Positions 1,009-25,156 of a stretch of DNA of 64,000 bases are shown piece after piece. Made by a program: the position numbers and the translations under genes. This DNA comes from Candidatus Omnitrophota bacterium (GTDB lineage: Bacteria > Omnitrophota > Gorgyraeia > Zapsychrales > JANLHA01), in the NCBI GenBank assembly GCA_029560465.1, contig JAKQKX010000063.1, forward strand, positions 67,796-131,795, written 5' to 3'. Position 1 is the stretch's first letter. Every line of letters starts with the position of its first letter. The notes beneath the pieces were generated by a model that was given only the letters and a program-made list of their open reading frames with translations, had not been told where the DNA came from and did no database searches.

Positions 1009-1037
1009 TTGACCGCATTTTTTCTCTATGATATCAT
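1009..1037 (+). promoter_or_regulatory. sigma70-like promoter upstream of the GH94 gene (TTGACC-17-TATCAT)
   Basis: -35 TTGACC is at 1009..1014 and -10 TATCAT at 1032..1037, about 60 nt upstream of the ATG at 1100. Confidence 0.4.
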
Positions 1038-1099: not shown

Positions 1100-3517
1100 A
1101 TGAAGTACGGTTCTTTTTCAAAATCGGGGTTGGAATACGTGATTTCCACGCCGCTGACCCCCCGGCCCTGGATTAATTATCTTACGAATGAAAACTACTG
1201 CAGCATCATTTCCCATTGCGCGGGGGGATACAGTTTTTATAAAGACTGCCGCACAAACCGGATAACCCGTTGGGCGCCGGAAAACTGGCATTTTGACCGG
1301 CCTGGGAAATATATATTTATGAGGGATGGCGCAAAGGCGTGGTCCTTAACTTATCAGCCCCTGCGGGTTAAGCCCCAAAAATACGAATGCCGCCACGGAT
1401 TGGGTTATACAACAATTTCCGCGGTCAATAACGGCGTTCATTCGGAAGTGACCTATTTTGTCCCGGAACACGATTCCTGCGAGGTTTGGTTGGTCAAGAT
1501 TTCCAATCAGACCAAAAAGGAGAAGAAACTGGAAATTTATCCCTATGTAGAATTCCTGATCGGGGATTATCATGAGGAGATCCGGTACCGGAATATTATG
1601 AACCTGTACACGCGGGTCTGGTTTGATAAAGGACAGAAGGCTGTCTTTGCCCAAAAAACCGCGCAGTGGCAGGGGATGAATATCCAGCCGTTTGATTCGC
1701 TGATTTATTTTGCCTCGTCCCTGGCCGTGAAAGGATGCTGCACGCAAAAGGACGCTTTTCTCGGGCGGTATAATTCCGAGGAGAAGCCGGAAGCGGTTTT
1801 AGAAGGGCGTTTTAAGAATTTTCCTCTTTGTTCAGGGGAAGACGGCATTGGGTCTTTTAAGCATAGCGTGACTCTGAAGCCCGGGGAGACGAAAGAATTT
1901 TCAGTTATTTTGGGGCAGACGCCCGATGTCCCGGGTGTAGGGAAGCTGATTGCCAAGTACCGCGACCTGAAGCAGGCCAGAGCGGAATTTGAGAAGACCC
2001 GAGAGCTGTGGCGCAGGCGCGTCACGGAGAATATTGTTTTGGAGACCCCGGACAAGGATTTTAATACTTTATTTAATGTGTGGGTCAAGTATCAGTTATA
2101 TATTTGTAACCTGTGGTCGCGGTCTCCGAGTTTTTATCATGAAGGGTCCGGCGGCCGGGGGTACCGGGATTCGGCCCAGGATTCCGAAGCCGTTGTGTCC
2201 ATTAACGCGTCTTTAACCCGTCAAAAGATTTTGAAACTGGCCTCCTTGATCCGTCGTGATGGCACGTCTGCCCCAGGATGGTCGGAAACAGCGGGGCCGC
2301 ACAAATTCCTCCCGAATAAAGATCATCCCGTTTGGCTGACGACGACTGTCACGGCCTATATTAAGGAAACGGGCGACAAGGATATCTTGTGTGAATATGT
2401 CCCGTATTTGAAGGATAAATGGATCAACGGATGGGAGGTTGATCCGAATTATCACGGCGGCGCGCAGACGGACGGGGAAGGGACATTGCTGGAGCATTTG
2501 GAAAAGAACTTAAGTTTTTGTTTTAATGATGTCGGAGAGAAGGGCTTTCCACGGATCGGGCACGCCGACTGGAATGACGCGATTGACGCGGCGGGCATCA
2601 AGCACAGGGGGGAAAGCGTCTGGCTGGCGCAGGCCTTAGTCCGTTCTTTGAAAATGCTGGCCGAGCTCTGTCAGCTCGTGAATGAGGAACAGAAAAAATC
2701 CGAATACCTGCAGATGGCCAAAACCATGACGGAACGCATTAATAACGCCGGCTGGGACGGGGAATGGTATTCCCGCGGGTTTGATGACCAGGGGCAGGTT
2801 TACGGCAGCAAACAGGATAAAGAGGGCAAGATATTTTTAAACACGCAGGCCTGGGCGGTTCTTTCCGGAGTGGCCGAAGGCGAACGGTTGAAAAAGATTT
2901 TACAGTCCACGGATAAGCATTTGAACGGCCCGCACGGATTGGCGCTGTTCGCCCCGGCGTTTTCAGGCTGGGTTAAAAGGCTGGGCCGGATCAGCATGTT
3001 TTCAGAAGGAACGAAAGAAAATGCGGCGGTGTTCTGCCACGCGGCCACGTTCATGGCGGTGGGTTACGCCATGGCCGGGTACGGCGCGAAAGCTTACGAA
3101 GCGGTCTGCAAAATTATGCCTAATAAACAGAAAAATATGGACCTTTATAAAACTGAACCCTATGTGTTCGCGGAATATTTGGTCGGGCCGGATAATCCTT
3201 ACCGGTATGGGGAAGGTGCTTTTACCTGGATCACGGGAACATCGGGTTGGAATTTTATGCTGGCGACAGAGTGGATCTGCGGGGTCCGCCGGGATTTCCA
3301 GGGGCTCAAAATCGATCCATGCCTGCCTCCGCAGTGGAAGAAATGTTGTGTGCGCCGGCCTTTTAGGGGGGATATTTACGAGATTGAAATCCTCAACCCG
3401 AAAGGGAAAGAAAAGGGCGAGAAGACGATAACGGTAGACGGACAACGGATAGATGGGGACGTTATAGTTCCTTTTAAAGACGGCCAGGTCCACCGCGTTA
3501 AGGTGGTTCTGGGATAA
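1100..3517 (+). CDS. GH94 glycoside phosphorylase (cellobiose/cellodextrin/laminaribiose/chitobiose phosphorylase family)
   Basis: The 805-aa product has the N-terminus EYVISTPLTPRPWINYLTNENYCSIISHCAGGYSFYKDCRTNRITRW, which is collinear with the cellobiose phosphorylase N-terminal domain. The GHADWNDA motif matches the GH94 catalytic region (GRADWND), and the length is typical for GH94. Confidence 0.85.
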   Translation: MKYGSFSKSGLEYVISTPLTPRPWINYLTNENYCSIISHCAGGYSFYKDCRTNRITRWAPENWHFDRPGKYIFMRDGAKAWSLTYQPLRVKPQKYECRHGLGYTTISAVNNGVHSEVTYFVPEHDSCEVWLVKISNQTKKEKKLEIYPYVEFLIGDYHEEIRYRNIMNLYTRVWFDKGQKAVFAQKTAQWQGMNIQPFDSLIYFASSLAVKGCCTQKDAFLGRYNSEEKPEAVLEGRFKNFPLCSGEDGIGSFKHSVTLKPGETKEFSVILGQTPDVPGVGKLIAKYRDLKQARAEFEKTRELWRRRVTENIVLETPDKDFNTLFNVWVKYQLYICNLWSRSPSFYHEGSGGRGYRDSAQDSEAVVSINASLTRQKILKLASLIRRDGTSAPGWSETAGPHKFLPNKDHPVWLTTTVTAYIKETGDKDILCEYVPYLKDKWINGWEVDPNYHGGAQTDGEGTLLEHLEKNLSFCFNDVGEKGFPRIGHADWNDAIDAAGIKHRGESVWLAQALVRSLKMLAELCQLVNEEQKKSEYLQMAKTMTERINNAGWDGEWYSRGFDDQGQVYGSKQDKEGKIFLNTQAWAVLSGVAEGERLKKILQSTDKHLNGPHGLALFAPAFSGWVKRLGRISMFSEGTKENAAVFCHAATFMAVGYAMAGYGAKAYEAVCKIMPNKQKNMDLYKTEPYVFAEYLVGPDNPYRYGEGAFTWITGTSGWNFMLATEWICGVRRDFQGLKIDPCLPPQWKKCCVRRPFRGDIYEIEILNPKGKEKGEKTITVDGQRIDGDVIVPFKDGQVHRVKVVLG

Positions 3518-3556
3518 GAGCGGGTGGGGCTTGTGTGATATTAGAGAAACGCTTTT

Positions 3557-3585
3557 TTGACAAAGTAAAACATGCGTGATAGAAT
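3557..3585 (+). promoter_or_regulatory. near-consensus sigma70 promoter upstream of the ABC binding-protein gene (TTGACA-17-TAGAAT)
   Basis: -35 TTGACA is at 3557..3562 and -10 TAGAAT at 3580..3585, in the 200-bp gap before the ATG at 3721. Confidence 0.5.
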
Positions 3586-3720
3586 ACGCCGTTATCTATT
3601 CTTATATTAAAGACATAATGTTTAATTTAATCATCCCAATGATTTAAAGCTCATCCCCGAAGTCGTCGTTTTCAATATGAATTTGTTCTACTCATTGGGG
3701 CCTCATTTAAAGGAGCGGGT

Positions 3721-5031
3721 ATGAAAGGGAAATTGCTGTTGGTGATCGGGTTTTGTGCCTTGGCGACCATTATCTGGAGTTGTCAAAGTTGCGGGCCGGC
3801 TGTGCCTCCCAATAAAAATATGATTACGGTATGGCATTGGATGACCGATCGGCATGACGCTTTCAATGAATTGGCCAAGCGCTATCAGGCCGAAACGGGC
3901 GTGGAAGTGGTTTTTGAATTATACGCCCCGTCTGACGTTTATTCCCAAAAAATTATAGCCGCTGCCCAGGCGCATATCTTGCCGGATATTTTTGGCATCC
4001 TGGATAAAAAGGCCGTGTTCGCAACGTTTATTGAAAGCGGATTCATCGCCAATTTGACGGAGGAATTTCAGAAAGATGAGGCGGCATGGGAAAAAAGCCT
4101 TTTCCCAAAAGCCCTTTCCGCCAACCGTTTTGAAGAAGGCAATGTTTATAATATTAAACCGGGTATTTACGGGGTTCCGATTGATGTGACCAATATCCAG
4201 ATGCTTTATAACAAGAAGCTGCTGGAGAAAGCCGGGGTCGTGCGTGCTCCCCAGACGTTTGACGAGTTCCTGGCCGCGACCGAAGCCCTGAATCGGGTCG
4301 GCGTTTCCGGGCTGGTTTCCGGTTGGGGCGAGCTTTGGATGGCGGATTGCTTCGCGTCTAATTACGCGTTTAATATTATGGGAGAAGACAAGGTCATGAA
4401 CACGTTCCGCGGGAAAGTGCCGTACACTGACCCGGAATGGATTGAAGTGTTCCGGATTTTTGATATTTTACGGCAAAAAGGCGCTTTGGTGGAAGGGATT
4501 GTGACTAAAGCCAATAAGTACGCGGAACAGGACTTTGCCTTGGGCCGGGCCGCTTTCGCGTTTAACGGGTCCTGGTGCGTGAATGTGTACCATGAGATGA
4601 ACCCGGATTTGGAGTATGGGATTATCCTTCCTCCTAAATATAACACGAGTCTTCCCATGCGGATTTGGGGAGGCGCAGGATCATCGTTTGTTGTCAATAG
4701 CGCTTCTGAAAAACAGGATAAAGCCGTCGCTTTCCTGAAATGGCTTTCCGCAAAAGAACAACAGGCGTATTTGTCTCAGGAAACTTTGAACCTGCCGGCT
4801 AACCGGTATGCGCTGACCGATATCCCGGCTGTGCTTTCGGAATTCGCCCGGGCCATGGACGCGACCACCCATCCGACGATTTGGCCGTTGAATGAGGAAC
4901 CCTTGGTGATCGAGGCGTTTGACAAGGGGATTCAATCGATTATCATAGGAGAGAAAACTCCCGAACAAGTTGCCCAGGACGTGCAGAACGTGAAAGAGCG
5001 TGAGATGGCGAAAAAACAAAAACGGAAATAA
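3721..5031 (+). CDS. carbohydrate ABC transporter substrate-binding lipoprotein (family 1 SBP)
   Basis: A lipoprotein signal (LLLVIGFCALATIIWSCQSC) is present. The 436-aa size and sequence pattern fit sugar-binding SBPs. Two permease genes lie immediately downstream. Confidence 0.75.
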   Translation: MKGKLLLVIGFCALATIIWSCQSCGPAVPPNKNMITVWHWMTDRHDAFNELAKRYQAETGVEVVFELYAPSDVYSQKIIAAAQAHILPDIFGILDKKAVFATFIESGFIANLTEEFQKDEAAWEKSLFPKALSANRFEEGNVYNIKPGIYGVPIDVTNIQMLYNKKLLEKAGVVRAPQTFDEFLAATEALNRVGVSGLVSGWGELWMADCFASNYAFNIMGEDKVMNTFRGKVPYTDPEWIEVFRIFDILRQKGALVEGIVTKANKYAEQDFALGRAAFAFNGSWCVNVYHEMNPDLEYGIILPPKYNTSLPMRIWGGAGSSFVVNSASEKQDKAVAFLKWLSAKEQQAYLSQETLNLPANRYALTDIPAVLSEFARAMDATTHPTIWPLNEEPLVIEAFDKGIQSIIIGEKTPEQVAQDVQNVKEREMAKKQKRK

Positions 5032-5053
5032 CTTTTAAACGAAATTAATCATA

Positions 5054-5983
5054 ATGTCTTTGGCTCTCAAAAGCAAATTTTCACTTCCAAACCTTCGAGA
5101 TCACCTGGAGAGTTTCGCGTTTGTCCTGCCCGCCGTCCTTATTTTTTGTATATTTTATATCGTCCCATTTTACGAAATATTTAAACTGTCCCTGCAGGAA
5201 TGGGATGGCATCAGTTTATCCAGAAGTTATATTGGATTTGAGAATTTTAAAGAATTGTTGGTTGACCAGGGCTGGTGGAGGTCGATGTGGAATGCCGCCT
5301 ATATTACCCTGGTGGCCCTGACCTTTCAGAATGCGCTGGCCTTTGCTCTGGCCCTGGCCTGTGACCAGGAAATTTTTATGAAAGGGGTGTACCGGGTTAT
5401 TTTCTTTATCCCTCCGGTGCTTTCCGAAGTCGTGGTCGGGCTTATCTGGTCCTGGATTCTTTATTCCGGCATGCAGGACGGCCAGCATATCGGGTTGTTG
5501 AATACTGCTTTGGAAAAAATCGGTTTTTCGAACCTGATCACCAATTGGCTGTCCAATCCCAAGACGGTGTTGACCTGCATCGCCGTGGTCCATTCCTGGA
5601 AAGGGTTTGGGTGGGGCTTCATCATGTTTTTAGCCGGGTTGCAGACGATTGACCGCCAGCTATATGAGGCGGCGCGGGTGGATGGCGCCGGGTCGCTCAG
5701 TGTTTTTAAAAATGTGACGGTTCCCATGATGCTGCCGGTGATCGTGGTTGTGATGATTTTAACGATCCTGGGGGCGATGCAGGCTTTTGTCCTTATCCTG
5801 ACGTTGGCGGGCAGTTCGGGGCTGGGGGATTATACCGCCGTCCCGGTGACCAAGATCTTGGCGGCCATGACCGGGCAGAACCGCTACGGTTATGCCTGCG
5901 CCATGGGGGTTAATTTCGGGATGATTTTAATAGCCGTGTCTTTTGTCCTCAAGAAAATGTCCGAACAGATGAAACAGGCTTAA
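5054..5983 (+). CDS. sugar ABC transporter permease (MalF/UgpA-like)
   Basis: Six predicted TM helices with an EAA-type loop (LYEAARVDGAGSLSVFKNVTVP). Confidence 0.8.
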   Translation: MSLALKSKFSLPNLRDHLESFAFVLPAVLIFCIFYIVPFYEIFKLSLQEWDGISLSRSYIGFENFKELLVDQGWWRSMWNAAYITLVALTFQNALAFALALACDQEIFMKGVYRVIFFIPPVLSEVVVGLIWSWILYSGMQDGQHIGLLNTALEKIGFSNLITNWLSNPKTVLTCIAVVHSWKGFGWGFIMFLAGLQTIDRQLYEAARVDGAGSLSVFKNVTVPMMLPVIVVVMILTILGAMQAFVLILTLAGSSGLGDYTAVPVTKILAAMTGQNRYGYACAMGVNFGMILIAVSFVLKKMSEQMKQA

Positions 5984-5997
5984 AAAGAGGAATACAT

Positions 5998-6870
5998 ATG
6001 ATCAGCAAATACAGGGTGATCCGGGCTGTTAAGGCGACATTGATCCATATTTTTCTTTTGACCGTGACCATAACGTGCTTGTTCCCGTTGTTTTGGATGG
6101 CCCGTTCGGCGCTGATGAGCAACAAAACGATTTTTACGGATAAATCCCTGATTCCGGCGGAGATTCATTTTGATAATTTCGTGAAGGCTTGGACGCAAGG
6201 ACAGTTCGGCATGTATTCGCTCAATAGCCTCATTTACACCTTTTCCGTTGTGATTGGGATCGTGGTGATTTCGTCTCTGGCGGCTTATGCTTTTTCCCGG
6301 CTGGAGTTCCCGGGCAAGAATTTCTTCTTTTACATGTTTGTCATGGCCATGATGATCCCGCTCCCCGGGAGTTTTGTCCCGTTAACGGTGTTGATGACGA
6401 AGTTGGGGTTCATCAATTCGTCGTACCCGTTTGTCCGGCAGCTGGGGTATGTGCTGTGTATGATCAACGTGGGCTTATCGCTCAGTATTCTGCTTTTAAA
6501 AACTTTTTTTGACAAGATGCCTCCGGACCTGGAAGACGCCGCCCGTATTGACGGTTGCTCGAAGCTGGGGATATGGAGGCATGTGGCTTTACCCTTGGCC
6601 CGGCCGGCCATTGCCGTTATCGTGATTTTTAACGCATTGAATGTTTGGAATGAGTATATCCTGGCGATGTTGTTGTTAAACGACATCCCGAATCATCCTA
6701 CCATCATGCCGATCCAAAGGGGCCTCATGGTTTTTCAGGGAACATACCTCGCGGACTATCCTCTTTTGATGGCTGGGTTGACCATCGCTGCCGTTCCAAT
6801 TATTTTGGTGTATCTTCTGATGCAAAAGCACATTATTAAAGGTTTGTCATCCGGCGCTGTCGTTGGATAA
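5998..6870 (+). CDS. sugar ABC transporter permease (MalG/UgpE-like)
   Basis: The EAA loop (LEDAARIDGCSKLGIWRHVALPLARPA) is typical of MalG-type permeases. Confidence 0.8.
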   Translation: MISKYRVIRAVKATLIHIFLLTVTITCLFPLFWMARSALMSNKTIFTDKSLIPAEIHFDNFVKAWTQGQFGMYSLNSLIYTFSVVIGIVVISSLAAYAFSRLEFPGKNFFFYMFVMAMMIPLPGSFVPLTVLMTKLGFINSSYPFVRQLGYVLCMINVGLSLSILLLKTFFDKMPPDLEDAARIDGCSKLGIWRHVALPLARPAIAVIVIFNALNVWNEYILAMLLLNDIPNHPTIMPIQRGLMVFQGTYLADYPLLMAGLTIAAVPIILVYLLMQKHIIKGLSSGAVVG

Positions 6871-6893
6871 TCAGAACTGGGAGGGTTTTTATT

Positions 6894-9506
6894 GTGAGAA
6901 AAAACAAACAAGGGGAAAAAACTGTATTAGGATTTTTATTCCTGGCCGGATTTCTTTCGCTGGGGTTGGTGACGTCGGGCTGGACGCAGGGTGCGGATGG
7001 CGAAAGCCTTGTTGTTGATAGGGCGGTTGAGGCGAAGCAGGCTACTGAAGCGGAGGGTTCTCTCGCGCCGAGCCCGGAAGAAGAGCTTTTGGCGGAACCC
7101 GAGGGCGTTGCTGTTGCGGAGGATCCCTCAGAGGAAACGGAAGCTCCGGAAGCGGGTGAGGGAAAGACGGAAGAGGAGAGTCCGGCCGAGGGTGCTGCCG
7201 TGGATGAGGTTTCTAAAGAAGAAATGAATATTACTTTGCCGGTGGGAGGGGAGGCTGTCCCTTACACGGACATCGAGCTTGAGGCGGGGGCGACCAAGGA
7301 TGATTTTGTCCGGAAATCCTGGGAACTGTCCAGCCAGAGGAAATTAGAGCAGCTGGATAAGCTGGTGGCGGTGGCGTTGGCACTTTTTGATGGGGAGGCC
7401 CGCAAAGAACAAGCGTCTTTGTCTGGATTCCCAGGGCGGGGTAAGGAAAAGGATTATGCTTATTTAAACACGGTGGCGACCATCCTGTTTGTGCAGGCGG
7501 AAGCGATGATGAATTATGGCCGTACGGAAGAGTCGATCGCGACATTCCAGAAAATTATTGATGAATATCCCTGGGCGCAAGCTTGGGATCCTTCTCGGGG
7601 GTCATACTGGTCTGTGGCGGAAAAGAGCCAGGCGAGCATTGATGTCATGACCGGGAAAGTCGAAGAAGAGCCGGACGAGCCGCCGACACGGTTGCGGACG
7701 CTGCCTTCCCTGGCCTTTCCCGGAACGGTCCAAGTGGTCGATTATCATAAATACGGGGAGTTTCTCGATGTGGGAACAGACCGGTATCATTATAAGATTA
7801 ATGACCTTAAAGGGTTGAAAGAGGCTGTGGGGGAAGGGGTTTATCCCAATACCGCGGATGTGTTTAAGGATCCGAAATATAAGCAGGCAAAAAAAGAAGG
7901 CCGCCTTGAAGGCAGCCACTGGGATTTTGTGCACAGCGATGACCTGGAAGCCGCTTTTTATAAATGGGCGACGGCCCCGGAACCCGGCGGCGTCAAGCTT
8001 TTTTACCTGGGTATGATTTTTGAAAAAGCGCAAATGTATTATGAGGCCATTAAAACTTACCAGGCCATTATCGTTCATTTTCCAAAGACGGTCGGGTGGA
8101 CGTATTGGCAGACGCCTTGGTATCCGGCTCAAGCCGCGGTTTCCAAGATTATTTATTTGGTGCGTTCCCACCCGGAATTAAATTTAAAAGTGAAATGGAT
8201 GAAAATAGAAGTTAAGAACGGTTTTGATAATGATGTCAGCAACGATGTTGTGGTTACGTATCCTGGTGTCATTCAGGAAAGAGGGTGGATGGATAAAGTT
8301 AAGGAAGGGCTGAACCTGGATAAAAAGAAGGTGCCTTTACGCAATGTCACGCGGCGTTTGGGGGAAGGCAAGGTTTCTCTGGTGCAGTATGATAACGGCC
8401 ACTGGCAGCTCCTGGTGGAAGGCAAGCCGTATGTTATTAAAGGAGTCACGTATGCTCCGACCAAAATCGGTCAGAGCCCGGATAAGGGGACCTTGGTGTC
8501 TTGGATGTATGAAGATACCAACAAGAACGGCAAGGCGGATGGACCGTTTGATGCCTGGGTGGACGCCAACGGTAATAATCAGCAGGACCCGGATGAATTG
8601 GTCGTCGGGGACTTTCAGTTGATCCAGGAGATGGGCGGCAATACCCTCCGGGAATACCACCAGCCGTTTAAACCGAACAAGGACGTTCTGAGGAAGCTTT
8701 ATGAGGAATATGGGATCCGGGTGATCCTGGGGGATTTCCTTGGGAAATACACTCTGGGGTCTGGGGCGTCCTGGTTTGAAGGGACCGATTATGAAAATCC
8801 GGAACATCAGAAGAATATGATGGAATCCGTCCGTCAAATGGTTATGGAACATAAGGATGAGCCTTATCTTTTGTTTTGGCTTTTAGGGAACGAGAACAAT
8901 TACGGAGTCGCCTCTAACGCAGATAAGAAGCCGGAGGCGTATTATAAATTCGCCAATGAGGTGGCTAAAATGATCAAAAGCATTGACCCTAACCATCCGG
9001 TGGCGTTATGTAACGGCGACACCCTGTATCTGGATATTTTCGCGAAGAACGCTCCGGATATTGATATGTTTGCGGCCAATGTTTATCGCGGTGATTATGG
9101 TTTCGGCGCTTTCTGGCAGCAGATTCAGGAGTCGACCGGGAAAGCGGCTTTTATTACCGAGTATGGCTGCCCGGCCTACGCCAAGCATCTCACGAAAGCG
9201 GAGGGGGAAGAAGCGCAGATGAACTATCACCGCGGCAACTGGCATGATATTGAAGCGAATATGGCGGGCCACCCGGAGGGCGCGGGGAACGCCATTGGGG
9301 GGGTTGTCTTTGAGTGGACGGATGAATGGTGGAAGAATTATGAGCCGTTTTATCATGACCGCCGGTCTGATGCGATCGGGCCTTTCCCCGGCGGATACTA
9401 TTATGAAGAATGGTTTGGTATTACAAGCCAGGGCAATGGAACGCACAGCCCCTTTATGCGCCAGTTGAGGAAAAGTTATAAATTTTATAAGGAAGCCTGG
9501 AATTAA
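6894..9506 (+). CDS. secreted multidomain clan GH-A enzyme, GH72-like (Gas/Gel/Phr-type glucanosyltransferase/glucanase fold) with an N-terminal acidic linker and two Trp-rich helical modules
   Basis: GTG start with a signal peptide. Residues ~30-110 form a low-complexity E/A/P-rich linker. Two copies of the ...DEYPWAQAWDPSRGSYW / ...HFPKTVGWTYWQTPWYPAQA module follow. The C-terminal TIM-barrel motif series is YVIKGVTYAP, GGNTLREYHQP, LFWLLGNENNYG (acid/base NE), DMFAANVYRGDYGF and FITEYGCPAY (nucleophile E). Confidence 0.7.
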   Translation: MRKNKQGEKTVLGFLFLAGFLSLGLVTSGWTQGADGESLVVDRAVEAKQATEAEGSLAPSPEEELLAEPEGVAVAEDPSEETEAPEAGEGKTEEESPAEGAAVDEVSKEEMNITLPVGGEAVPYTDIELEAGATKDDFVRKSWELSSQRKLEQLDKLVAVALALFDGEARKEQASLSGFPGRGKEKDYAYLNTVATILFVQAEAMMNYGRTEESIATFQKIIDEYPWAQAWDPSRGSYWSVAEKSQASIDVMTGKVEEEPDEPPTRLRTLPSLAFPGTVQVVDYHKYGEFLDVGTDRYHYKINDLKGLKEAVGEGVYPNTADVFKDPKYKQAKKEGRLEGSHWDFVHSDDLEAAFYKWATAPEPGGVKLFYLGMIFEKAQMYYEAIKTYQAIIVHFPKTVGWTYWQTPWYPAQAAVSKIIYLVRSHPELNLKVKWMKIEVKNGFDNDVSNDVVVTYPGVIQERGWMDKVKEGLNLDKKKVPLRNVTRRLGEGKVSLVQYDNGHWQLLVEGKPYVIKGVTYAPTKIGQSPDKGTLVSWMYEDTNKNGKADGPFDAWVDANGNNQQDPDELVVGDFQLIQEMGGNTLREYHQPFKPNKDVLRKLYEEYGIRVILGDFLGKYTLGSGASWFEGTDYENPEHQKNMMESVRQMVMEHKDEPYLLFWLLGNENNYGVASNADKKPEAYYKFANEVAKMIKSIDPNHPVALCNGDTLYLDIFAKNAPDIDMFAANVYRGDYGFGAFWQQIQESTGKAAFITEYGCPAYAKHLTKAEGEEAQMNYHRGNWHDIEANMAGHPEGAGNAIGGVVFEWTDEWWKNYEPFYHDRRSDAIGPFPGGYYYEEWFGITSQGNGTHSPFMRQLRKSYKFYKEAWN

Positions 9507-9534
9507 GGAGATACGGTTGTCCTCAATATAAAAT

Positions 9535-9564
9535 TTGCTAAATAACAGGTAAAAATGCTATAAT
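9535..9564 (+). promoter_or_regulatory. sigma70-like promoter (TTGCTA-18-TATAAT) upstream of the Trp-rich module gene
   Basis: -35 TTGCTA is at 9535..9540 and -10 TATAAT at 9559..9564, in an AT-rich 230-bp gap. Confidence 0.4.
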
Positions 9565-9740
9565 TACTCCATTGTTTTTAGTTTTATAATCTTAATAGGA
9601 GAGGGGGTGTGGAGAACGGATCTAGTTTTTATCACTACTATCTGACCGCAAGGTTAGATTTCCCCGGCAAGAGGCTGGGAACTGATATAAATAATTTATT
9701 TGAAGGAAATTGGGTTTAACAAATTGGAGGTAACTTAGAG

Positions 9741-10601
9741 ATGCACAAAAAGATTTTGTTATGCATGATGGCGGCCATCTTAGGCGTGTCCTTAGCCATT
9801 CCGGTGCCAGCGGCTGCTTATAATTTTGGAGATTACCGTTCCGTGACACTGATCACGAGTGCTTGGCAGGCCTTAGGGGAGAATGATTTGGAAGCCGTAT
9901 TGGCTTATACGAATAAATGTGTTGAATTATATTCTGAGCAGGCCAAAAAAATGCAGGCCAGCCTGACGGCTTATCCAACCGGCACTAATGATGAAATTTT
10001 CTCTTACTGGGCGTTAAACGATATCGCGACCGGTTTGTTTATTCAGGGTGAAGCGTACCGCAAGGCCAAAATGACAGACGAAGCGGTGAAAGCGTATCAG
10101 ACCGTTGTGGATGAGTATACCTATGGCCAGTGCTGGGATCCGAAGGGATGGTTCTGGAAACCGGCGGAAGCCGCGAAAGAGAAAATTGCTATGATCGAAT
10201 CCGGATCAAATCTGGATTTTGGCGACTATACCTCCATGACTTTAACGGTTAAAGCTTGGGAAGCCCTTGGCAACAAAGATCTGGACAGTGTCGTGGCCTA
10301 TACGAATAAGTGCCTGGAGCTTTATGAAGCGAAAGCTAAAGAGATGCAGGAATCCATGACCGAATATGCTTGGGAATCCAAAGACAAGATTTTCTCTTAC
10401 TGGGCGCTCAATGACGTTGGAACCTGCTATTTTATCAGAGGCGAAGCTTATTTGAACGCCGGGAAGAAAGAAGAAGCGAAGAAAAACTTCAAGAAACTGG
10501 TAGACGAATATTATTTCTCGCAGTGCTGGGATCCGAAGGGCTGGTTCTGGAAGCCGGCAGAAGGCGCCCAGCAGAAACTAGAGGCTCTGGAGGAAGAATA
10601 A
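9741..10601 (+). CDS. secreted protein made of two tandem copies of a Trp-rich helical module of unknown function
   Basis: A signal peptide precedes residues 28-147 and 158-277, which are about 55% identical to each other. Both copies end in YGQCWDPKGWFWKPAE / FSQCWDPKGWFWKPAE. Confidence 0.75.
   Translation: MHKKILLCMMAAILGVSLAIPVPAAAYNFGDYRSVTLITSAWQALGENDLEAVLAYTNKCVELYSEQAKKMQASLTAYPTGTNDEIFSYWALNDIATGLFIQGEAYRKAKMTDEAVKAYQTVVDEYTYGQCWDPKGWFWKPAEAAKEKIAMIESGSNLDFGDYTSMTLTVKAWEALGNKDLDSVVAYTNKCLELYEAKAKEMQESMTEYAWESKDKIFSYWALNDVGTCYFIRGEAYLNAGKKEEAKKNFKKLVDEYYFSQCWDPKGWFWKPAEGAQQKLEALEEE
9822..10571 (+). repeat. intragenic tandem duplication (2 x ~390 nt) encoding the Trp-rich module
   Basis: The DNA and protein self-similarity is visible by eye: FGDYRSVTLITSAWQALGENDLEAVLAYTNKC versus FGDYTSMTLTVKAWEALGNKDLDSVVAYTNKC. 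Confidence 0.7.
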
Positions 10602-10640
10602 TCCCGTCCGCGGGCCTTTGGTGTTGATCCGTATTTCTTA

Positions 10641-10690
10641 AACAGGATCCTCAAGGGTGTTTCCTCAACTTGAGGATCCTGTTTTTCTTT
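10641..10690 (+). terminator. rho-independent terminator
   Basis: A perfect 15-bp stem (AACAGGATCCTCAAG ... CTTGAGGATCCTGTT) is followed by TTTCTTT, directly after the stop at 10601. Confidence 0.8.
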
Positions 10691-10756
10691 ATCATCCTGC
10701 AGTCAATTTAATATTAGGTTATGGGTGTTGATTTACATGAAAGGGCGAGATGTCTT

Positions 10757-11398
10757 ATGAACAAAATTGTCTTTTTCTGGGGGCTGTGTTTCCTGGTAAT
10801 ATGCGGCTGCAACCGGAGCAGTTCCAGCCTGACATCACAGGGAAATTCGAACCGGAATGTTGAACAGGAAGAAACCAATTTCCAGCCGTTCCTTGTTTAT
10901 AAAGACAAAGGGTCCAGGGGAAATCATTTTGTCCCTTCCGGTTTTATGCCGAACGGGAAATGTATTAATTTTAACGACGCCTGGCAGGAAAATTGTTATG
11001 ACGGCAAAACCTGTATTCGTGTGGAGTATGACGTGGCTTGCTCGAAAGATGATCAGAAATGGGCCGGCATTTATTGGCTGAACCCGGCGAATAACTGGGG
11101 CAGCCGTAAGGGCGGGTTTAACCTCGCGGGCGCCAGGGAGTTGAGCTTTTGGGCCAAGGGCGAAAAAGGCGGCGAACGTATTGAGGAATTCAAGATGGGC
11201 GGGATTACCGGGGATTTTCCGGATTCCGACATGGCGATCATCGGGCCGGTGATCCTGACGAACGAGTGGCGCAAATACACGATCGATTTGAGGGGCCGCG
11301 ATTTGTCTTACGTGAGCGGCGGCTTTTCTTGGTCGACGAATGTCGACGTAAATCCCGACGCCTGCACGTTTTACCTGGATAATATCCAATATCAATAG
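10757..11398 (+). CDS. lipoprotein with a possible carbohydrate-binding-module-like beta-sandwich domain
   Basis: The internal ATG at 10757 gives the lipobox FLVICGC. The body is rich in aromatic/Gly/Asn residues (GIYWLNPANNWGSRKGGFNLAGARELSFWAKGEKGGERI), typical of CBM-like folds. Confidence 0.45.
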   Translation: MNKIVFFWGLCFLVICGCNRSSSSLTSQGNSNRNVEQEETNFQPFLVYKDKGSRGNHFVPSGFMPNGKCINFNDAWQENCYDGKTCIRVEYDVACSKDDQKWAGIYWLNPANNWGSRKGGFNLAGARELSFWAKGEKGGERIEEFKMGGITGDFPDSDMAIIGPVILTNEWRKYTIDLRGRDLSYVSGGFSWSTNVDVNPDACTFYLDNIQYQ

Positions 11399-11423
11399 TA
11401 GTCGCTATTCACGGTCTTTATGA

Positions 11424-11456
11424 AGGGGGGGCGGGTTACCGTTCCCCCGTTTTTTT
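11424..11456 (+). terminator. rho-independent terminator
   Basis: The GGGGGGGCGG ... CCGTTCCCCC stem contains two G-U pairs and is followed by TTTTTTT. Confidence 0.6.
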
Positions 11457-11659
11457 GTCCCGGCAGCCCCGCATTGATATCACGAACCCGCCGCTGTCGT
11501 CGCTCGACTTGCCCGCCCGGCGAGCCCCTCCTTAAAAATCGAAAGGGCTCTCCGAGAGTTGTTCTTCTTTGCATTTTGTTTCTTTTTTTCTTGTACTCCC
11601 TTATATCCTTTGTTATATTCATATCAAGCTTATAAATATTATTATCATAAGGAGATGAT

Positions 11660-12982
11660 ATGTCGAGAGCTGCAAAGTCTATTTTAGTGTTTTTGCTCTT
11701 ATTGCTTTTTGTCTCCGTCGGAGTACTGACGTATGTCGCTTTTCAGAAGCAAGAGTCCGATAAATCAAAATTATCCCTGGAAAAGCAGATGGATGATTTT
11801 CAGCAGAGGGAGAAAAAATATATCCTTGAGAATAAAGATTTGCAGGAGAAGTTGAAGGATGTTGAAAAGAAGAAAGCCGAACTTGAAGAACGCTTGAGTT
11901 CTTTTGGCGGTGATATGGAGTCCCTCAACAAGCAGATCGCGGATTTAACCAGTGAACGGGAAGTTTTGCAGGAAAAAATCGCGGAGCTGGAAAAGGAACG
12001 GAACACCTTATTGACCAGGGTTAAAGAAAAGCCGGAGCCGCAGATTGTTTATAAATACGTGGACCGGGAAACCGGCGCGCCGGTGGAGTCCCCGGGGGCG
12101 GCCTCTCCCGCGGCGGGGAAGAAGCCGGAAGAACCGGTGATCAGCAAAGAAATCCCGGCGGTGAGGGTTCCGGAGATATCTCCTGACAACGAAACATATT
12201 GGGCTCAGGTCATCCGGGAAAAAACTTCCCTTGAGCTGGAGGTGAACACTTTAAAAAAGAAATTGGATGCCAATATGCTCGAACTGGAAGCCTTAAAAAA
12301 ATCCAATTCCGACTTGGAATTAGAAATCGCCGAGTTAGCGAATACCAAAGATTCCATCGAGAGAGAGATCAAACATGGCAAAGATCTGGCGGATAATTTG
12401 TCTTTGGCTTTAGCACGGGCGGAGAATGATAAGGAATTCTTAAACGGCCGGTTTGCAAAACTCAACGATGAAAATTCATCCTTGAGGGTCCAGATTAAAG
12501 ATTTGACATCAACCAAGATCGCCCTGGAAAAAAGTATTGTCCGCTTGCAGGATGAGAAGAAGGACGTGGAGCGGAAATTGATGGAAACCGAGCATGTCAT
12601 TCAAAACCGCATTGATGAAATCTGGCAGATTAAGGACAGCCTAGAGAAGAATTTTCAGATGTCCGGAGCCTCGTCAAAGGCGGTCGAGTTGCCGCCAATT
12701 GTTGTTTCTGGCGCTGGAGAAACGTCGACAAGGGCCGCCCCGGAGGTTATTTTGACCGTCCCGGGGTTTAACGGCAACATCGTTTCTGTGAATGATGAAA
12801 ATAATTTTGTTATCGTTGATTTAGGGCAGAATGATGGCATCAAGCTTGGGGATAACATGAGCGTTTACCGGGGCGCGGAATATGTCGCGGCCCTGGAAGT
12901 GATCCAGGTGCGCAAAGATATAGCCGCCGCGGACATTAAAAACAAAGTCACCACAATCCGTGTCGGTGACGCCGTACGATAA
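11660..12982 (+). CDS. membrane-anchored long coiled-coil protein with a C-terminal beta-rich (SAF/FlgA-like) domain
   Basis: An N-terminal TM helix is followed by ~300 aa of heptad-repeat K/E/L-rich sequence. The C-terminus reads NIVSVNDENNFVIVDLGQNDGIKLGDNMSVY. Confidence 0.5.
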   Translation: MSRAAKSILVFLLLLLFVSVGVLTYVAFQKQESDKSKLSLEKQMDDFQQREKKYILENKDLQEKLKDVEKKKAELEERLSSFGGDMESLNKQIADLTSEREVLQEKIAELEKERNTLLTRVKEKPEPQIVYKYVDRETGAPVESPGAASPAAGKKPEEPVISKEIPAVRVPEISPDNETYWAQVIREKTSLELEVNTLKKKLDANMLELEALKKSNSDLELEIAELANTKDSIEREIKHGKDLADNLSLALARAENDKEFLNGRFAKLNDENSSLRVQIKDLTSTKIALEKSIVRLQDEKKDVERKLMETEHVIQNRIDEIWQIKDSLEKNFQMSGASSKAVELPPIVVSGAGETSTRAAPEVILTVPGFNGNIVSVNDENNFVIVDLGQNDGIKLGDNMSVYRGAEYVAALEVIQVRKDIAAADIKNKVTTIRVGDAVR

Positions 12983-12993
12983 TTCAGGACAAC

Positions 12994-13998
12994 GTGACCA
13001 GGAAACGTAAAGTCAGCATAGAGGATGTCGCCCGCCGCGCCAAGGTTTCCATTACAACCGTTTCGCGTGTTATCAACAATGTTCCCACCGTCAGCCAGCA
13101 AAATCGTTCTAAAGTTGAAGAAGCGATCACCGCTTTGAAATATAAGCCGGATGTCAGCGCCCAGCGTTTGGCCAGCGGCACCAATAATGCCATCGGCTTG
13201 GTCATGCCCGGCTATCCGGGGATTTTTTATTCTTTTTACGCCATCGAAATTATCCGGGGGGTGGGGCATGCCTGTGAGACCCTGCGCCTGGATTTGGTGT
13301 TTCATATCACCAACGGGTTTAATCCGCTGAATACTAATAGCGTTGGAGGCGTCATTTTTGCCGATATCATTGAGAACCGGAAACAGGTTGAAGAAGCGTT
13401 ATCCGCCGATATACCTTGCATGGTCATTAATAATGTCGTGGATGACCTGGATGTGAATTATATCGGGATCGATAACGTCGCCGGAGGCCGTATTGCCGCC
13501 GATTATCTTGTCAGCCTGGGGCACCAGCGTGTCGCTATGATTACCGGAAAATTACAGACACAAGCCGGGTTTCAGCGCTTTGAAGGTTTTCAGCAGGGGC
13601 TTCAGAAGGAAAACATAGCTTTGAAGGATGAATATGTGGTTGAGGGGGATTATTCCCGCCGCAGCGCCCGGAATGCGACGGAGAAACTTCTCGCGCTTCC
13701 TCAGCCGCCGACCGCTATATTTGCGGCAAGCGATGATATGGCTTTGGAGGTCATTACCGTGATACAGGAAAGAGGGATGAAGGTCCCTGATGATATTTCG
13801 GTGATCGGGTTTGACGATAATCCCGCCAGCCTTTATGGCGCTATTGCTTTGACCACGATCCGGCAGTCTTTGTTCCAGATGGCCGAATACGCCGTGAAAT
13901 ACCTGCAGAACATAATGTCCGGGAAAAAGAAATCCGCTGTCCAGATGGTTTTAACTCCGCAGCTTGTTGTCCGCGATTCCTGCCGTGCCCTGAAGTAG
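12994..13998 (+). CDS. LacI-family transcriptional regulator
   Basis: GTG start. The N-terminal HTH (VSIEDVARRAKVSITTVSRVINN) is followed by a periplasmic-binding-fold sugar sensor domain. Confidence 0.85.
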   Translation: MTRKRKVSIEDVARRAKVSITTVSRVINNVPTVSQQNRSKVEEAITALKYKPDVSAQRLASGTNNAIGLVMPGYPGIFYSFYAIEIIRGVGHACETLRLDLVFHITNGFNPLNTNSVGGVIFADIIENRKQVEEALSADIPCMVINNVVDDLDVNYIGIDNVAGGRIAADYLVSLGHQRVAMITGKLQTQAGFQRFEGFQQGLQKENIALKDEYVVEGDYSRRSARNATEKLLALPQPPTAIFAASDDMALEVITVIQERGMKVPDDISVIGFDDNPASLYGAIALTTIRQSLFQMAEYAVKYLQNIMSGKKKSAVQMVLTPQLVVRDSCRALK

Positions 13999-14178
13999 AC
14001 AGACCCTTCCTTCAAAAGCAGCCTTGTCTGGCCACAGATTTTCATTATCTTATTAAGATGGGGCCTTGAAAAATTTAACCTGGCCAGGGACGGCCTGGCA
14101 GCATGAAAACATTGACAAATCAATGATTTAGCGCTAGTTTAATAATTCAAGAACAGGGGACGGACGCGAGGAAATTGT

Positions 14179-14352
14179 ATGCACAAAACCATAACCATCT
14201 TTATGTACTTGTTGTGGGGATTGACTATTCTGGCGGTCTTTGCGGCGACTTTTAAAGATTTTCAGTATGAAGATCTGAACCTGATCGCACTGGTGTCGTT
14301 TGTTTTCGCGGTTCTTAATTCCATCCTGGCATTAACAATGAATAAAAAGTAA
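14179..14352 (+). CDS. small (57 aa) two-TM membrane protein
   Basis: ATG with a GAGGA RBS 6 nt upstream. The product MHKTITIFMYLLWGLTILAVFAATFKDFQYEDLNLIALVSFVFAVLNSILALTMNKK is below the ORF-track length cutoff. Confidence 0.35.
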   Translation: MHKTITIFMYLLWGLTILAVFAATFKDFQYEDLNLIALVSFVFAVLNSILALTMNKK

Positions 14353-14367
14353 TGGATAATAAACAGT

Positions 14368-16254
14368 ATGTTTGATAGAGAATATCAATGTGTCGTGATT
14401 GGGGGAGGACATGCGGGGGTCGAAGCGGCCTTGGCTGCGAGCCGTATGGGCTGCGAAACGCTCTTGGTGACGTTGTCTTTCCCAACGATCGGGCAGATGA
14501 GCTGTAATCCGGCGGTCGGGGGCGTGGGGAAGGGGCAGCTTGTCAAAGAAATCGACTGCCTTGGCGGGGAAATGGCTTTGGCCGCTGACCGCACGGGCAT
14601 CCAGTTCCGGCGGCTTAATGCTTCGAAAGGACAGGCGGTCCGTTCGAGCCGGTGTCAGAGTGACCGCAAACAATACAGGGAATATATGCAGGACGTTATC
14701 CGTCGGCAGGCGCGGCTCACGGTCTTGGAAGACGAAGCCTGCGCGTTGCTAGTCCGTCATTCTCAAATAACAGGTGTCAGGACGAGCCAGGGATTAACCC
14801 TGGGTGCCCGGGCGGTGGTGATCGCTGGCGGGACATTTTTAAACGGTCGGATCCATATCGGAAAGACAATCGTCCCGGGCGGACGCATTGATGAGCCGGC
14901 GTGCGTGCGGCTTGCCGCCAGTTTGTCGGAATTGGGTTTTGAAGTCCTGTCGTTTAAGACCGGAACCCCGCCAAGGCTCGACGGGAAGACCATAGACTTT
15001 TCCTCTTTGGAAGAGCAGCATTCGGATAACCCGCCTTTGCCGTTTTCATTCCGGACGCCGTCGATCCCTCCGGGGCAGGCCCTCCGACCGTGTTACATCA
15101 CCCGGACATGTGAGAAGACGCATGATATCATCCGGGCGAATATGCATTTATCTCCCATGTATTCGGGGCAGATTCATTCCACAGGGGTCCGGTATTGCCC
15201 TTCGATTGAAGATAAATTAAAGAAATTCAGTGACAAATTGTCTCACCACGTGTTTTTAGAGCCGGAGGGGCTGGAGACTGATGAATATTATCCCAATGGG
15301 ATTTCGACCGGCTTGCCTGCCGAGGTCCAGGAGGCCTTTGTGCGTTCTATCCCGGGGCTCGAACGGGTTAAAATTAACCGTTACGGGTACTCTATTGAAC
15401 ACGGCGTTATTCGTCCGACGGAACTTAAAGCTACGCTGGAAACGAAAAGGATCAGGGGGCTTTATTGCGCGGGACAGGTTAACGGCACCACCGGATACGA
15501 AGAAGCGGCGGCGCAGGGGATTGTGGCCGGGATCAATGCGGCTTGCGCCGTGCTGGGCAAGGAACCGCTTATTTTAGGCCGTGATGAATCGTATATCGGT
15601 GTTTTGATTGACGACCTGACCACCAAGGGGACCGAAGAACCTTACCGGATGTTCACCTCCCGGGTGGAATACCGGCTGATTATCCGGGAGGATAACGCGG
15701 ATAAACGTTTGATGAAATACGGGTATGAACTTGGCCTGCTCCCGGGCGCGGATTATGACGGGATGTTGCGCAAATATGAGCTTATCGATAAGGAGATTTT
15801 TCACCTACAGTCAACGGTTGTTAGTCCCGGCCCGGACATTGACCGGGTTTTAGAAAAGAATAACAGCAGCCCTTTGCGGCAGCCGACCCCCTTGAGCCTG
15901 ATTTTAAAACGGCCGGAGATGACTTACGCGATGATCGCCCCGTTTAACGGGAATTTAAAGGATCAAGCTCTCCCGGTCATTGAACAGGTCGAGTATGAGA
16001 TCAAATATGAAGGGTTTATCAAGCGGCAGCTCAAGGATGTGGAGAAGTTCCGGCATATTGAAAATATTAAGATCCCGGGAAACATTGATTACTCCCGTAT
16101 TCCCGGGCTTTCAATAGAGATTCAACAGAAGCTTCTTTCATTCCGTCCGTTAACGTTGGGGCAGGCTAACCGTATCTCCGGAGTTACTCCGGCGGCCATT
16201 TCCATCTTGATGATTTACCTGAAAAAATTAAGCCTGGAACGGGCCCGCGGTTAA
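14368..16254 (+). CDS. mnmG: tRNA uridine-5-carboxymethylaminomethyl modification enzyme MnmG (GidA)
   Basis: An FAD-binding N-terminus (CVVIGGGHAGVEAALAASRMG) and a 628-aa length fit MnmG. Confidence 0.9.
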   Translation: MFDREYQCVVIGGGHAGVEAALAASRMGCETLLVTLSFPTIGQMSCNPAVGGVGKGQLVKEIDCLGGEMALAADRTGIQFRRLNASKGQAVRSSRCQSDRKQYREYMQDVIRRQARLTVLEDEACALLVRHSQITGVRTSQGLTLGARAVVIAGGTFLNGRIHIGKTIVPGGRIDEPACVRLAASLSELGFEVLSFKTGTPPRLDGKTIDFSSLEEQHSDNPPLPFSFRTPSIPPGQALRPCYITRTCEKTHDIIRANMHLSPMYSGQIHSTGVRYCPSIEDKLKKFSDKLSHHVFLEPEGLETDEYYPNGISTGLPAEVQEAFVRSIPGLERVKINRYGYSIEHGVIRPTELKATLETKRIRGLYCAGQVNGTTGYEEAAAQGIVAGINAACAVLGKEPLILGRDESYIGVLIDDLTTKGTEEPYRMFTSRVEYRLIIREDNADKRLMKYGYELGLLPGADYDGMLRKYELIDKEIFHLQSTVVSPGPDIDRVLEKNNSSPLRQPTPLSLILKRPEMTYAMIAPFNGNLKDQALPVIEQVEYEIKYEGFIKRQLKDVEKFRHIENIKIPGNIDYSRIPGLSIEIQQKLLSFRPLTLGQANRISGVTPAAISILMIYLKKLSLERARG

Positions 16255-25145: not shown

Positions 25146-25156
25146 GAGAAAAACAT

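Follow-up and report, generated by a model that had tools for sequence, protein, structure and literature searches.

The 64,000-nucleotide stretch analysed here (hereafter the window), from a Candidatus Omnitrophota bacterium, carries between positions 1100 and 13998 nine long open reading frames (ORFs), all on the + strand, which encode an exported glycosidase of glycoside hydrolase (GH) clan GH-A with accessory proteins, an ATP-binding cassette (ABC) sugar importer, a GH94 phosphorylase and a LacI-family regulator. We lean towards reading them as the form that an ABC-transporter-based locus for the use of beta-glucan takes in Omnitrophota. Its target is most likely beta-1,3-linked (laminarin, curdlan or mixed-linkage type), because the GH-A enzyme is nearest to the GH158 endo-beta-1,3-glucanases and a homologue of laminaribiose phosphorylase (LBP) lies upstream in sister loci. 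A first-pass annotation of the window had proposed the same pathway logic, from an extracytoplasmic enzyme with binding proteins through the importer to a cytoplasmic phosphorylase under LacI control, and this was strengthened by synteny across the phylum. The same-strand arrangement was recovered too, and eleven supposed genes came down to nine. The proposed beta-1,3 substrate is supported by the GH158 affinity and the sister-locus LBP homologue, but the window's own GH94 is not of the LBP type. Public gene calls on contigs with the same genes (870, 286, 213, 440 and 334 aa) agree with the window ORFs.

In the proposed pathway, the exported GH-A glycosidase (6894-9506) would cut the glucan outside the cytoplasm, as its fold, catalytic residues and gene linkage suggest, and a lipoprotein resembling a carbohydrate-binding module (CBM; 10757-11398) and a 286-aa protein with tetratricopeptide repeat (TPR)-like modules (9741-10601) would act alongside it. 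A lipoprotein solute-binding protein (SBP) and two permeases, served by an ATPase encoded elsewhere, would import the putative oligosaccharides, and the cytoplasmic GH94 enzyme would split the presumed beta-linked disaccharide into a sugar-1-phosphate and a free sugar, which would save one ATP. Judging by its conserved linkage, LacI is a probable repressor of the GH94 gene and of the transporter/GH-A unit, acting at their separate promoters, a role that ROK may take in other lineages.

The conservation of the locus was followed by mapping the window proteins with tblastn onto the best 80 loci; the fractions given below count the loci with enough flanking DNA. The 870-aa GH-A protein has at least 1000 database relatives, the best 120 of them at 59-79% identity, and nearly all named ones among these 120 are metagenome-assembled genomes of Candidatus Omnitrophota. 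Some records of relatives are labelled 'uncultured Planctomycetales' and are interleaved with the Omnitrophota records at equal identity. In a scan with one genome per species, relatives were present in 381 species. The genes recur in the order SBP, permease, permease, GH-A and CBM-like protein, followed farther downstream by the coiled-coil protein and LacI. The second permease gene lies at most 2.5 kb upstream of GH-A in 53 of 65 loci and the SBP gene is upstream in 47 of 51, the CBM-like gene adjoins GH-A on its downstream side almost invariably (77/78), and LacI (38/52) and the coiled-coil protein (37/52, always directly before LacI) follow downstream. Because the same order recurs across the phylum, this clustering goes far beyond chance. 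Importer, GH-A enzyme and CBM-like protein make up the core of the locus. GH94 belongs to its variable accessory part, since only 13 of the 45 informative loci have it upstream. The 286-aa gene is restricted to the window's clade (9/52) and to metagenome loci with an LBP-type GH94. Distant lineages have the CBM-like domain in duplicate and carry in addition a barrel-only GH-A paralogue (43/52), a ROK sugar kinase/regulator (37/52) and a 545-aa TPR protein. In one distant locus type (L034; 155-6711 and 14686-17780), genes for a 1224-aa HEAT-repeat protein, a PD40 protein and two PilZ-domain proteins come before the importer. In the interval that separates the second GH-A paralogue from the coiled-coil gene, loci of this type carry the 545-aa TPR protein and the ROK regulator/kinase.

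The GH-A enzyme (870 aa; 6894..9506, + strand) begins with a Sec-type signal peptide and an acidic linker (~residues 33-130). In the AlphaFold2 (AF2) model (pLDDT 78, pTM 0.79), the linker is followed by a TPR-like helical domain (~135-425), a beta-sandwich (~431-519) and a (beta/alpha)8 barrel. Pfam recognised a GH2_C-type barrel (1.2e-11, 44.8 bits) and TPR_6. When phmmer was run against the PDB, the best matches were GH158 enzymes (9oro, 1.9e-11; BuGH158, 6pal, 1.1e-9), and a profile built from 37 homologues reached GH158 at 5.7e-15 and 1.6e-13 and the best GH2 entry at 5e-8. Foldseek also ranked GH158 first (9p26, 5e-13; BuGH158, 6pal, 1.4e-11), followed by GH2 glucuronidases (2e-10), GH5, GH35 and the GH72 enzyme Gel4 (1.3e-8). 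The predicted acid/base E667 (GNE) and nucleophile E756 (TEYG) are spaced by 89 residues. In the alignment they fall on Glu143 and Glu229, the acid/base and nucleophile of GH158(Pro), which lie ~86 residues apart (PMC13195107). Since both glutamates are invariant in the 37 homologues, it is very probable that the protein works as a retaining glycosidase. A strict need for the beta-1,3 linkage is reported for GH158 enzymes (PMC13195107).

By sequence and model, the protein is best described as a clan GH-A enzyme closest to the GH158 endo-beta-1,3-glucanases. Membership of GH158 itself was not assigned in view of the 18-21% identity, the short match, the different N-terminal architecture and the C-terminus: GH158(Pro) has an immunoglobulin (Ig)-like domain of eight strands after the barrel (PMC13195107), and in our model only a low-confidence loop and a helix follow it, with no such domain seen. 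GH2 was rejected, because only the GH2_C barrel model matches, PF02837 and PF00703 do not, and the N-terminal region is helical and TPR-like. The enzyme had been labelled GH72-like in the first-pass annotation, and this label gave way to a relation to GH158, which is the better match by sequence, profile and fold, the Pfam GH72 model (PF03198) returning E = 0.12 and 12.1 bits against a cut-off of 25.9. A 68%-identical homologue (P0008) just passes that cut-off with 27.1 bits, and 'GH72-like' is defensible as a remote resemblance. A further weak match was to the Glyco_hydro_cc Pfam family. Both GH72, a fungal cell-wall family, and Glyco_hydro_cc are active on beta-1,3-glucans.

As to its location, the enzyme had been taken as secreted or cell-surface exposed. 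The export signal is present, but Sec and lipoprotein signals do not by themselves establish surface exposure. The window also encodes LptE and a BamD-like gene (Pfam scan), for which reason the host cell is probably diderm, and since the organism appears diderm, the GH-A enzyme may be periplasmic. Two features of the protein lie outside its recognised domains. Between the first strand and the first helix of the barrel there is an insertion, EDTNKNGKADGPFDAWVDANGNNQQDPDE (~residues 541-568, window 8514-8597), with Asp, Asn and Gly positions invariant in the 37 homologues; it resembles two EF-hand or dockerin-type calcium-binding loops, is modelled with low confidence and has no Pfam dockerin match. 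The linker (~residues 33-130, window 6990-7283) is Glu/Ala/Pro-rich and occurs in the closest relatives only, distant homologues aligning from ~130.

The 286-aa protein encoded downstream (9741..10601, + strand) consists of a signal peptide and two tandem copies of a ~125-residue module. It had been described as a 'Trp-module' protein; a module was indeed present, but its identity had to be corrected, as the two copies match the N-terminal helical module of GH-A itself (residues 134-252; BLASTP, 7e-19 and 6e-18), with a weaker match to residues 369-431 (3e-5). Pfam assigned TPR_6 (1e-11). To judge from these alignments, the protein is a free-standing duplicate of the GH-A N-terminal module.

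For the CBM-like lipoprotein (213 aa; 10757..11398, + strand) a start further upstream, at 10721, is an alternative that would extend it to 225 aa, and the start at 10757 is favoured because an identical 213-aa protein (P0121) exists in public data. Its family has 1644 database matches; among the 120 listed, most are 380-aa two-domain forms, and aromatic residues are invariant in the family. Pfam returned no match for the window protein, and none of the 120 listed homologues carries a precomputed Pfam domain. The AF2 model (pLDDT 78) is a beta-sandwich of the jelly-roll type, for which Foldseek found CBM30 (1.3e-6) and CBM11 (5e-6), then CBM29, CBM8, CBM22 and CBM4, at 10-18% identity and TM-scores of 0.5-0.6. 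The earlier CBM-like call thus agrees with a CBM30/CBM11-like model, and does so at the level of the fold only; membership of a defined CBM family by sequence was rejected, given the missing Pfam match and the 10-18% identity to CBMs. The next gene encodes a coiled-coil protein (440 aa; 11660..12982, + strand) with a membrane anchor at the N-terminus and a small beta domain at the C-terminus, for which Pfam gave only sub-threshold coiled-coil matches and a weak FlgT_C match. It ends 11 bp before the LacI gene in the window, and its conserved position directly before LacI is its sole link to the system.

The importer is probably of the CUT1 type. Its SBP (3721..5031, + strand) has a lipoprotein-like signal (IIWSC) at the N-terminus and matches SBP_bac_8 (9e-35) and SBP_bac_1 (3e-32), and the two permeases (5054-5983 and 5998-6870, both + strand) match BPD_transp_1 at 2e-17 and 5e-15; their NCBIfam matches (UgpA/UgpE, MalF/MalG, GlcT/GlcU) all stay below cut-off. 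A Pfam scan of 30 other ORFs of the window found no MalK/MsmK-type ATPase, and no ORF with both Walker A and LSGGQ/E motifs occurred in any of 81 related loci. Therefore, the importer has no ATPase in cis, as had been predicted. A shared ATPase encoded elsewhere is common in CUT1-type systems.

At the upstream end of the locus lies the GH94 glycoside phosphorylase (805 aa; 1100..3517, + strand), which has no signal peptide. Both its (alpha/alpha)6 catalytic domain (PF17167, 3.7e-103) and its N-terminal beta-supersandwich domain (PF06165, 4.3e-70) are full length, and the catalytic Asp (HADWND) as well as the Arg of GYRDS and the His of VFCH, residues of the phosphate and -1 sites, align with the Clostridium thermocellum cellobiose phosphorylase (CBP; CtCBP) and the Vibrio proteolyticus chitobiose phosphorylase (ChBP; VpChBP) and are conserved in 12 Omnitrophota orthologues. 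The phosphorylase call is thereby sustained in family and catalytic residues, but a laminaribiose-type assignment does not fit the window's own copy, which is only 24% identical to LBP-like GH94 proteins. Among solved structures it matches CtCBP at 1e-147, VpChBP at 3e-125 and the laminaribiose phosphorylase 6ggy at 5e-43 in partial stretches. Its identity is 36-38% to CtCBP and 34-35% to VpChBP, and CtCBP and VpChBP are themselves 36% identical. In these alignments the window enzyme stands at the same distance from CBP as ChBP does, and homology gives no basis for assigning its function. The 120 top-ranked homologues share at least 64% identity with it, and those with a name all come from Omnitrophota, which places the enzyme, by sequence, in an Omnitrophota-specific subfamily of the CBP/ChBP branch.

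The motifs near the active site are fixed in the 12 orthologues and distinctive (RYRNIMNLY, EGSG-GRGYRD, IGHADWNDAID, GTKEN). In CgCBP, Gln165 and Arg166, which lie on an N-domain helix of the partner subunit, and Arg362 contact the +1 glucose (PMC5309861). Aligned with CBP in these loop regions, the window enzyme lacks equivalents of all three, with RYRNIMNLY in place of NFQRNF and an EGSG-GRGYRD loop that is one residue shorter. Three motifs (GRG[YW]RD, xADWNDxxD, GTKEN) follow the LBP type (GKG-GRGWRD, SADWNDGLD, GTKEN) in their pattern and loop length and not CBP/ChBP, which may be taken as a hint. The alignment of specificity residues therefore gave a divided answer, with the CBP +1 residues absent and three motifs LBP-like, but the overall sequence nearest to CBP. 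Neither named activity was assigned: for cellobiose phosphorylase (EC 2.4.1.20), the equivalents of the +1 subsite residues are absent, and for laminaribiose phosphorylase (EC 2.4.1.31), the match to 6ggy is partial and the identity too low.

A different GH94 occupies this position in sister loci. In three related loci (L012, L014 and L018), a GH94 of 912-934 aa is encoded on the same strand just upstream of the SBP gene, with gaps of ~100, 120 and 80 bp. Over residues 31-896 the L012 protein matches the Paenibacillus laminaribiose phosphorylase PsLBP (6ggy) at E = 1e-269, its counterparts in L014 and L018 share 57-58% identity with the L012 protein, and all three show this close, full-length similarity to PsLBP (1e-269). 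When metagenome contigs were scanned with the L012 protein, 13 (L093, L096, L098, L100, L101, L103, L104, L107, L108, L110, L111, L116 and L125) carried a 55-61%-identical GH94 on the same strand upstream of SBP, permease, permease, GH-A, the 286-aa TPR gene and the lipoprotein gene. It mostly adjoins the SBP gene, lies 1.5-4.5 kb away in five contigs and abuts GH-A in L104. Four contigs whose GH94 falls in this identity range, and which extend far enough downstream, lacked the locus, and more distant GH94 copies (47-51% identical) showed no linkage to the SBP, GH-A and lipoprotein genes. On sequence grounds, the GH94 of the sister loci is a good candidate for a laminaribiose phosphorylase. 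Since sister loci carry the LBP type where the window carries its own, two GH94 types share the same upstream position in related lineages. Another arrangement that links the GH-A family to an LBP-type phosphorylase was seen in L148 (5-1891 and 13488-14672), where two barrel-only GH-A paralogues are followed, ~8 kb downstream, by a laminaribiose-phosphorylase-like GH94, with a ROK gene downstream of the latter.

Several of our observations speak against the proposed beta-glucan locus. The relation of the GH-A enzyme to GH158 is distant, with a target TM-score of ~0.5 at 18-21% identity over the structural alignment and a sequence match of only ~130-140 residues, and GH2 glucuronidases and galactosidases are its next-best matches. 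To the same side belong the low frequency of GH94 among the loci and the global alignment of the window's GH94, in which the laminaribiose enzyme is more remote than the cellobiose and chitobiose phosphorylases. The nearest solved structures to the SBP are the chitin-oligosaccharide-binding proteins NagB1 and NagB2, a match too weak (8e-20) to assign a ligand. CBM30 and CBM11, the nearest folds to the lipoprotein, bind beta-1,4-glucans as well as glucans of mixed linkage (beta-1,3-1,4). In the close clade, GH-A is conserved at 59-69% and GidA at 63-74%, which fits a housekeeping role in the envelope too, and no LacI operator was found, the promoters containing neither a conserved palindrome nor a cre-like site.

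The alternative that best survives is a locus for cellobiose/cellodextrin or a mixed-linkage, beta-1,4-containing glucan, in which GH-A would set free cello-oligosaccharides or oligosaccharides of mixed linkage and GH94 would be a true cellobiose phosphorylase. It agrees with CtCBP being the best solved match of the window's GH94 (1e-147, 36-38%), with the label 'cellobiose phosphorylase' that JGI gives to the orthologues, and with the CBM30/CBM11-like fold of the lipoprotein. However, at ~36% the GH94 enzyme is no nearer to CBP than ChBP is and has no equivalents of Gln165/Arg166 and Arg362 of CgCBP (PMC5309861), the sister loci have a laminaribiose-phosphorylase homologue instead, and the strict linkage requirement reported for GH158 (PMC13195107) points away from beta-1,4 bonds. 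We therefore regard this alternative as unlikely, although it deserves to be taken seriously. The similar conservation of GH-A and GidA bears on another possibility, namely that the GH-A, TPR-like, CBM-like and coiled-coil proteins serve to remodel a glucan of the cell itself, in its envelope or periplasm, in the manner of GH72 transglycosylases and that the importer serves recycling. The homologue that passes the Pfam cut-off of the GH72 glucanosyltransferases (27.1 vs 25.9 bits), the match of the helical modules to YbgF/CpoB-type TPR_6, the exclusive use of Sec or lipoprotein signals by all extracytoplasmic proteins of an apparently diderm cell, and the conserved membrane-anchored coiled-coil protein would all suit such a role. 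Yet the genes are consistently tied to an importer, to LacI/ROK sugar regulators and to disaccharide phosphorylases, as is typical of catabolic loci, and the locus encodes no glucan synthase, so that envelope remodelling appears improbable. Least probable of all is a locus for N-acetylglucosamine (GlcNAc) glycans (chitin oligosaccharides or prey cell-wall glycans) with a chitobiose-type GH94 and a predatory or parasitic lifestyle, for although the SBP is nearest to NagB1/NagB2, GH94 is 34-35% identical to the V. proteolyticus enzyme and has the YRD[ST]AQD motif in common with it, and a predatory life with breakdown of polysaccharides on the prey surface has been suggested for some Omnitrophota (PMC10066038, PMC12583861), the SBP match is generic for CUT1 proteins, the locus has no chitinase-type family (GH18, GH19 or GH20), and the GH-A neighbours and the LBP-type GH94 of the sister loci point to glucose-based beta-glucans.

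Turning to expression of the proposed beta-glucan locus, a promoter-like site precedes GH94 at 1009..1037 (+ strand; TTGACC, 17-nt spacer, TG-extended TATCAT, 10/12 matches), and its elements TTGACC and TGnTAnnnT are conserved in eight genomes (the window, L001, L003, L006, L008, L009, L010 and L015). The promoter at 3557..3585 (+ strand; TTGACA, 17-nt spacer, TG-extended TAGAAT), already named in the first-pass annotation, scored 11/12 matches, and TTTTTGACAA with TGnTAnAAT is conserved upstream of the SBP gene in ~12 related genomes. The SBP, both permease genes and GH-A are separated by gaps of only 14-23 bp and probably form one operon. Ahead of the 286-aa gene there is another promoter-like site (9535..9564, + strand; TTGCTA, 18-nt spacer, TG-extended TATAAT, 10/12 matches), and behind it the predicted strong intrinsic terminator was confirmed at 10640..10693 (+ strand), with a hairpin at 10640-10684 (16-bp stem, -26.7 kcal/mol, z = -6.4) followed by a U-run, UUUUUCUUU. 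The hairpin is conserved in L001-L003, where two single-base changes from G-C to G-U keep the pairing. A terminator-like hairpin also follows the lipoprotein gene (11425..11458, + strand; 10-bp G+C-rich stem and T-run, -21.7 kcal/mol, z = -1.8). The coiled-coil gene and LacI have a common leader, nearly identical in four genomes. From the promoters, terminators and gene gaps, the region is therefore predicted to comprise at least five transcription units and not one operon. The conserved part of that leader (~100 nt, ~11560-11659; window, L001, L002 and L003) stands out from the rest of the spacer, which diverges, and holds an inverted repeat, TATCAT-AAGGAG-ATGATA, that brackets the Shine-Dalgarno sequence and may be a regulatory element.

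The regulator itself (334 aa; 12994..13998, + strand) has a LacI helix-turn-helix domain (PF00356, 2.4e-16) and a Peripla_BP_3 domain (PF13377, 6.8e-34). Its proposed role as regulator of the locus is in keeping with its family and its conserved linkage, but no LacI-type operator was found in the named promoter regions. A candidate operator read from the sequence, the palindrome AATCAT-CCCA-ATGATT in the SBP leader (3628..3643, + strand), is not conserved in L001-L003, and the GH94 and SBP spacers hold no inverted repeat of at least 12 nt. The motif ATCATCCCA has three exact copies in the 64 kb, two of them in the GH94 and SBP leaders (one at 1033-1041). Since no operator was found, the argument for LacI is its conserved linkage.

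Beyond the locus, the next gene after LacI is mnmG (gidA; Pfam scan of the window ORFs), at 14368-16254. In L012 (1175-2653) and L018 (336-1730), mnmE (trmE) lies just upstream of the LBP-type GH94 and mnmG follows LacI; therefore, the whole sugar locus sits there between mnmE and mnmG. A 57-aa hydrophobic ORF (14180-14353), also called as a gene in public contigs, separates LacI from gidA in the window; TTGACA (14112) and the palindrome TTAGCGCTAG (14128-14137) lie ahead of it. On the other side, an ORF at 256-903, syntenic in the closest loci only, combines a DUF2059 with a Lepto_7_Nterm (LA_0442/LA_0875 N-terminal) domain and is followed by a G+C-rich hairpin (906-942, -25.3 kcal/mol, z = -3.3). 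Further away, at 24237-28890, come in order an ABC ATPase (24237-25145), a 552-aa ORF without Pfam match (25157-26815) and a 668-aa ORF (26884-28890), which has a Big_9 domain and, weakly matched (E = 5e-4), a GH2_C-like barrel. The 668-aa protein may be a second GH-A-type enzyme and is not a close paralogue of the 870-aa protein.

Most Omnitrophota are ultra-small and widespread, and to our knowledge none has been isolated in pure culture. The locus bears on their diet and on their lifestyle, free-living or host-dependent. Sugar transport, glycolysis and acetogenesis are reportedly encoded in most genomes of Gorgyraia and Velamenicoccia (PMC10066038), and published surveys of the phylum note only 'sugar transport' and 'GH2-like' hydrolases (PMC10066038; bioRxiv 10.64898/2026.06.07.730766); we found no published description of this Omnitrophota locus. 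With the same gene order in hundreds of species, it is a concrete and testable candidate for the main route of sugar acquisition in Omnitrophota, and the suggested beta-glucan substrate, probably beta-1,3-linked, could guide enrichment, stable-isotope probing and cultivation. Three families are flagged for biochemistry: the GH158-related GH-A enzymes, the CBM-like proteins without a Pfam model, and the GH94 subfamily as distant from CBP as ChBP is. A bolder proposal, which we offer tentatively and think rather doubtful, is that the locus is the phylum's core carbon-entry system, built from three unclassified or uncharacterised families of the carbohydrate-active enzyme type (a GH158-related GH-A enzyme fused to a TPR-like module, the CBM-like family and a GH94 subfamily with new or convergent specificity) and harvesting beta-1,3-type glucans from the environment or from hosts or prey, at their surfaces or out of their storage glycans.

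Compared with known systems, the design is ordinary, following the logic of ABC import and GH94 phosphorolysis used by anaerobes, and several of the component families are uncharacterised. The fungal GH72 Gas/Gel enzymes (PF03198) have the clan GH-A barrel in common with the window protein, as the Foldseek match to Gel4 (1.3e-8) indicates, but with E = 0.12 and 12.1 bits for GH72, both GH158 and GH2 score better in every comparison. The cellobiose/cellodextrin importer of C. thermocellum with its phosphorylase CtCBP (PDB 3qde) resembles the locus in that CtCBP is the best solved GH94 match (1e-147) and in the energy-saving sequence of import and phosphorolysis. It differs in the low identity of the two phosphorylases (36-38%), in the Gln165/Arg166 and Arg362 equivalents (PMC5309861) absent here, and in the companion hydrolase, which in the window does not belong to a known cellulase family.

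Beta(1,3)-glucan utilisation loci of Bacteroides contain BuGH158 (PMC7157763; PDB 6pal), and a processive enzyme, GH158(Pro), has also been described (PMC13195107). These enzymes are the nearest relatives of the GH-A protein by sequence and fold and use the same pair of catalytic glutamates, and there, as predicted here, adjacent genes encode dedicated non-catalytic glycan-binding proteins. In contrast, the Omnitrophota locus relies on ABC import instead of SusC/SusD (neither SusC/D nor a TonB-dependent receptor occurred among the locus genes scanned), has a phosphorylase in place of a beta-glucosidase and LacI and ROK regulators, and encodes unrelated binding proteins. The GH-A enzyme itself, at 18-21% identity, has an N-terminal helical domain and a beta-sandwich and, in the model, no C-terminal Ig-like domain.

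Loci that combine a GH94 laminaribiose phosphorylase with an ABC sugar importer occur in Paenibacillus sp. YM-1 and Acholeplasma laidlawii. The laminaribiose phosphorylases of both organisms have been described (PMC6484121). The Omnitrophota locus is like them in its predicted course, with an extracellular beta-1,3-glucanase step, SBP-dependent ABC import and cytoplasmic GH94 phosphorolysis, and sister Omnitrophota loci carry the match to PsLBP (6ggy, 1e-269). It is set apart by the GH94 of the window, which is only 24% identical to the LBP type, by a glucanase candidate that is an unclassified GH-A enzyme fused to a TPR-like domain, by the additional CBM-like, TPR-like and coiled-coil genes, and by its host, an apparently diderm nanobacterium of the Planctomycetes-Verrucomicrobia-Chlamydiae (PVC) group.

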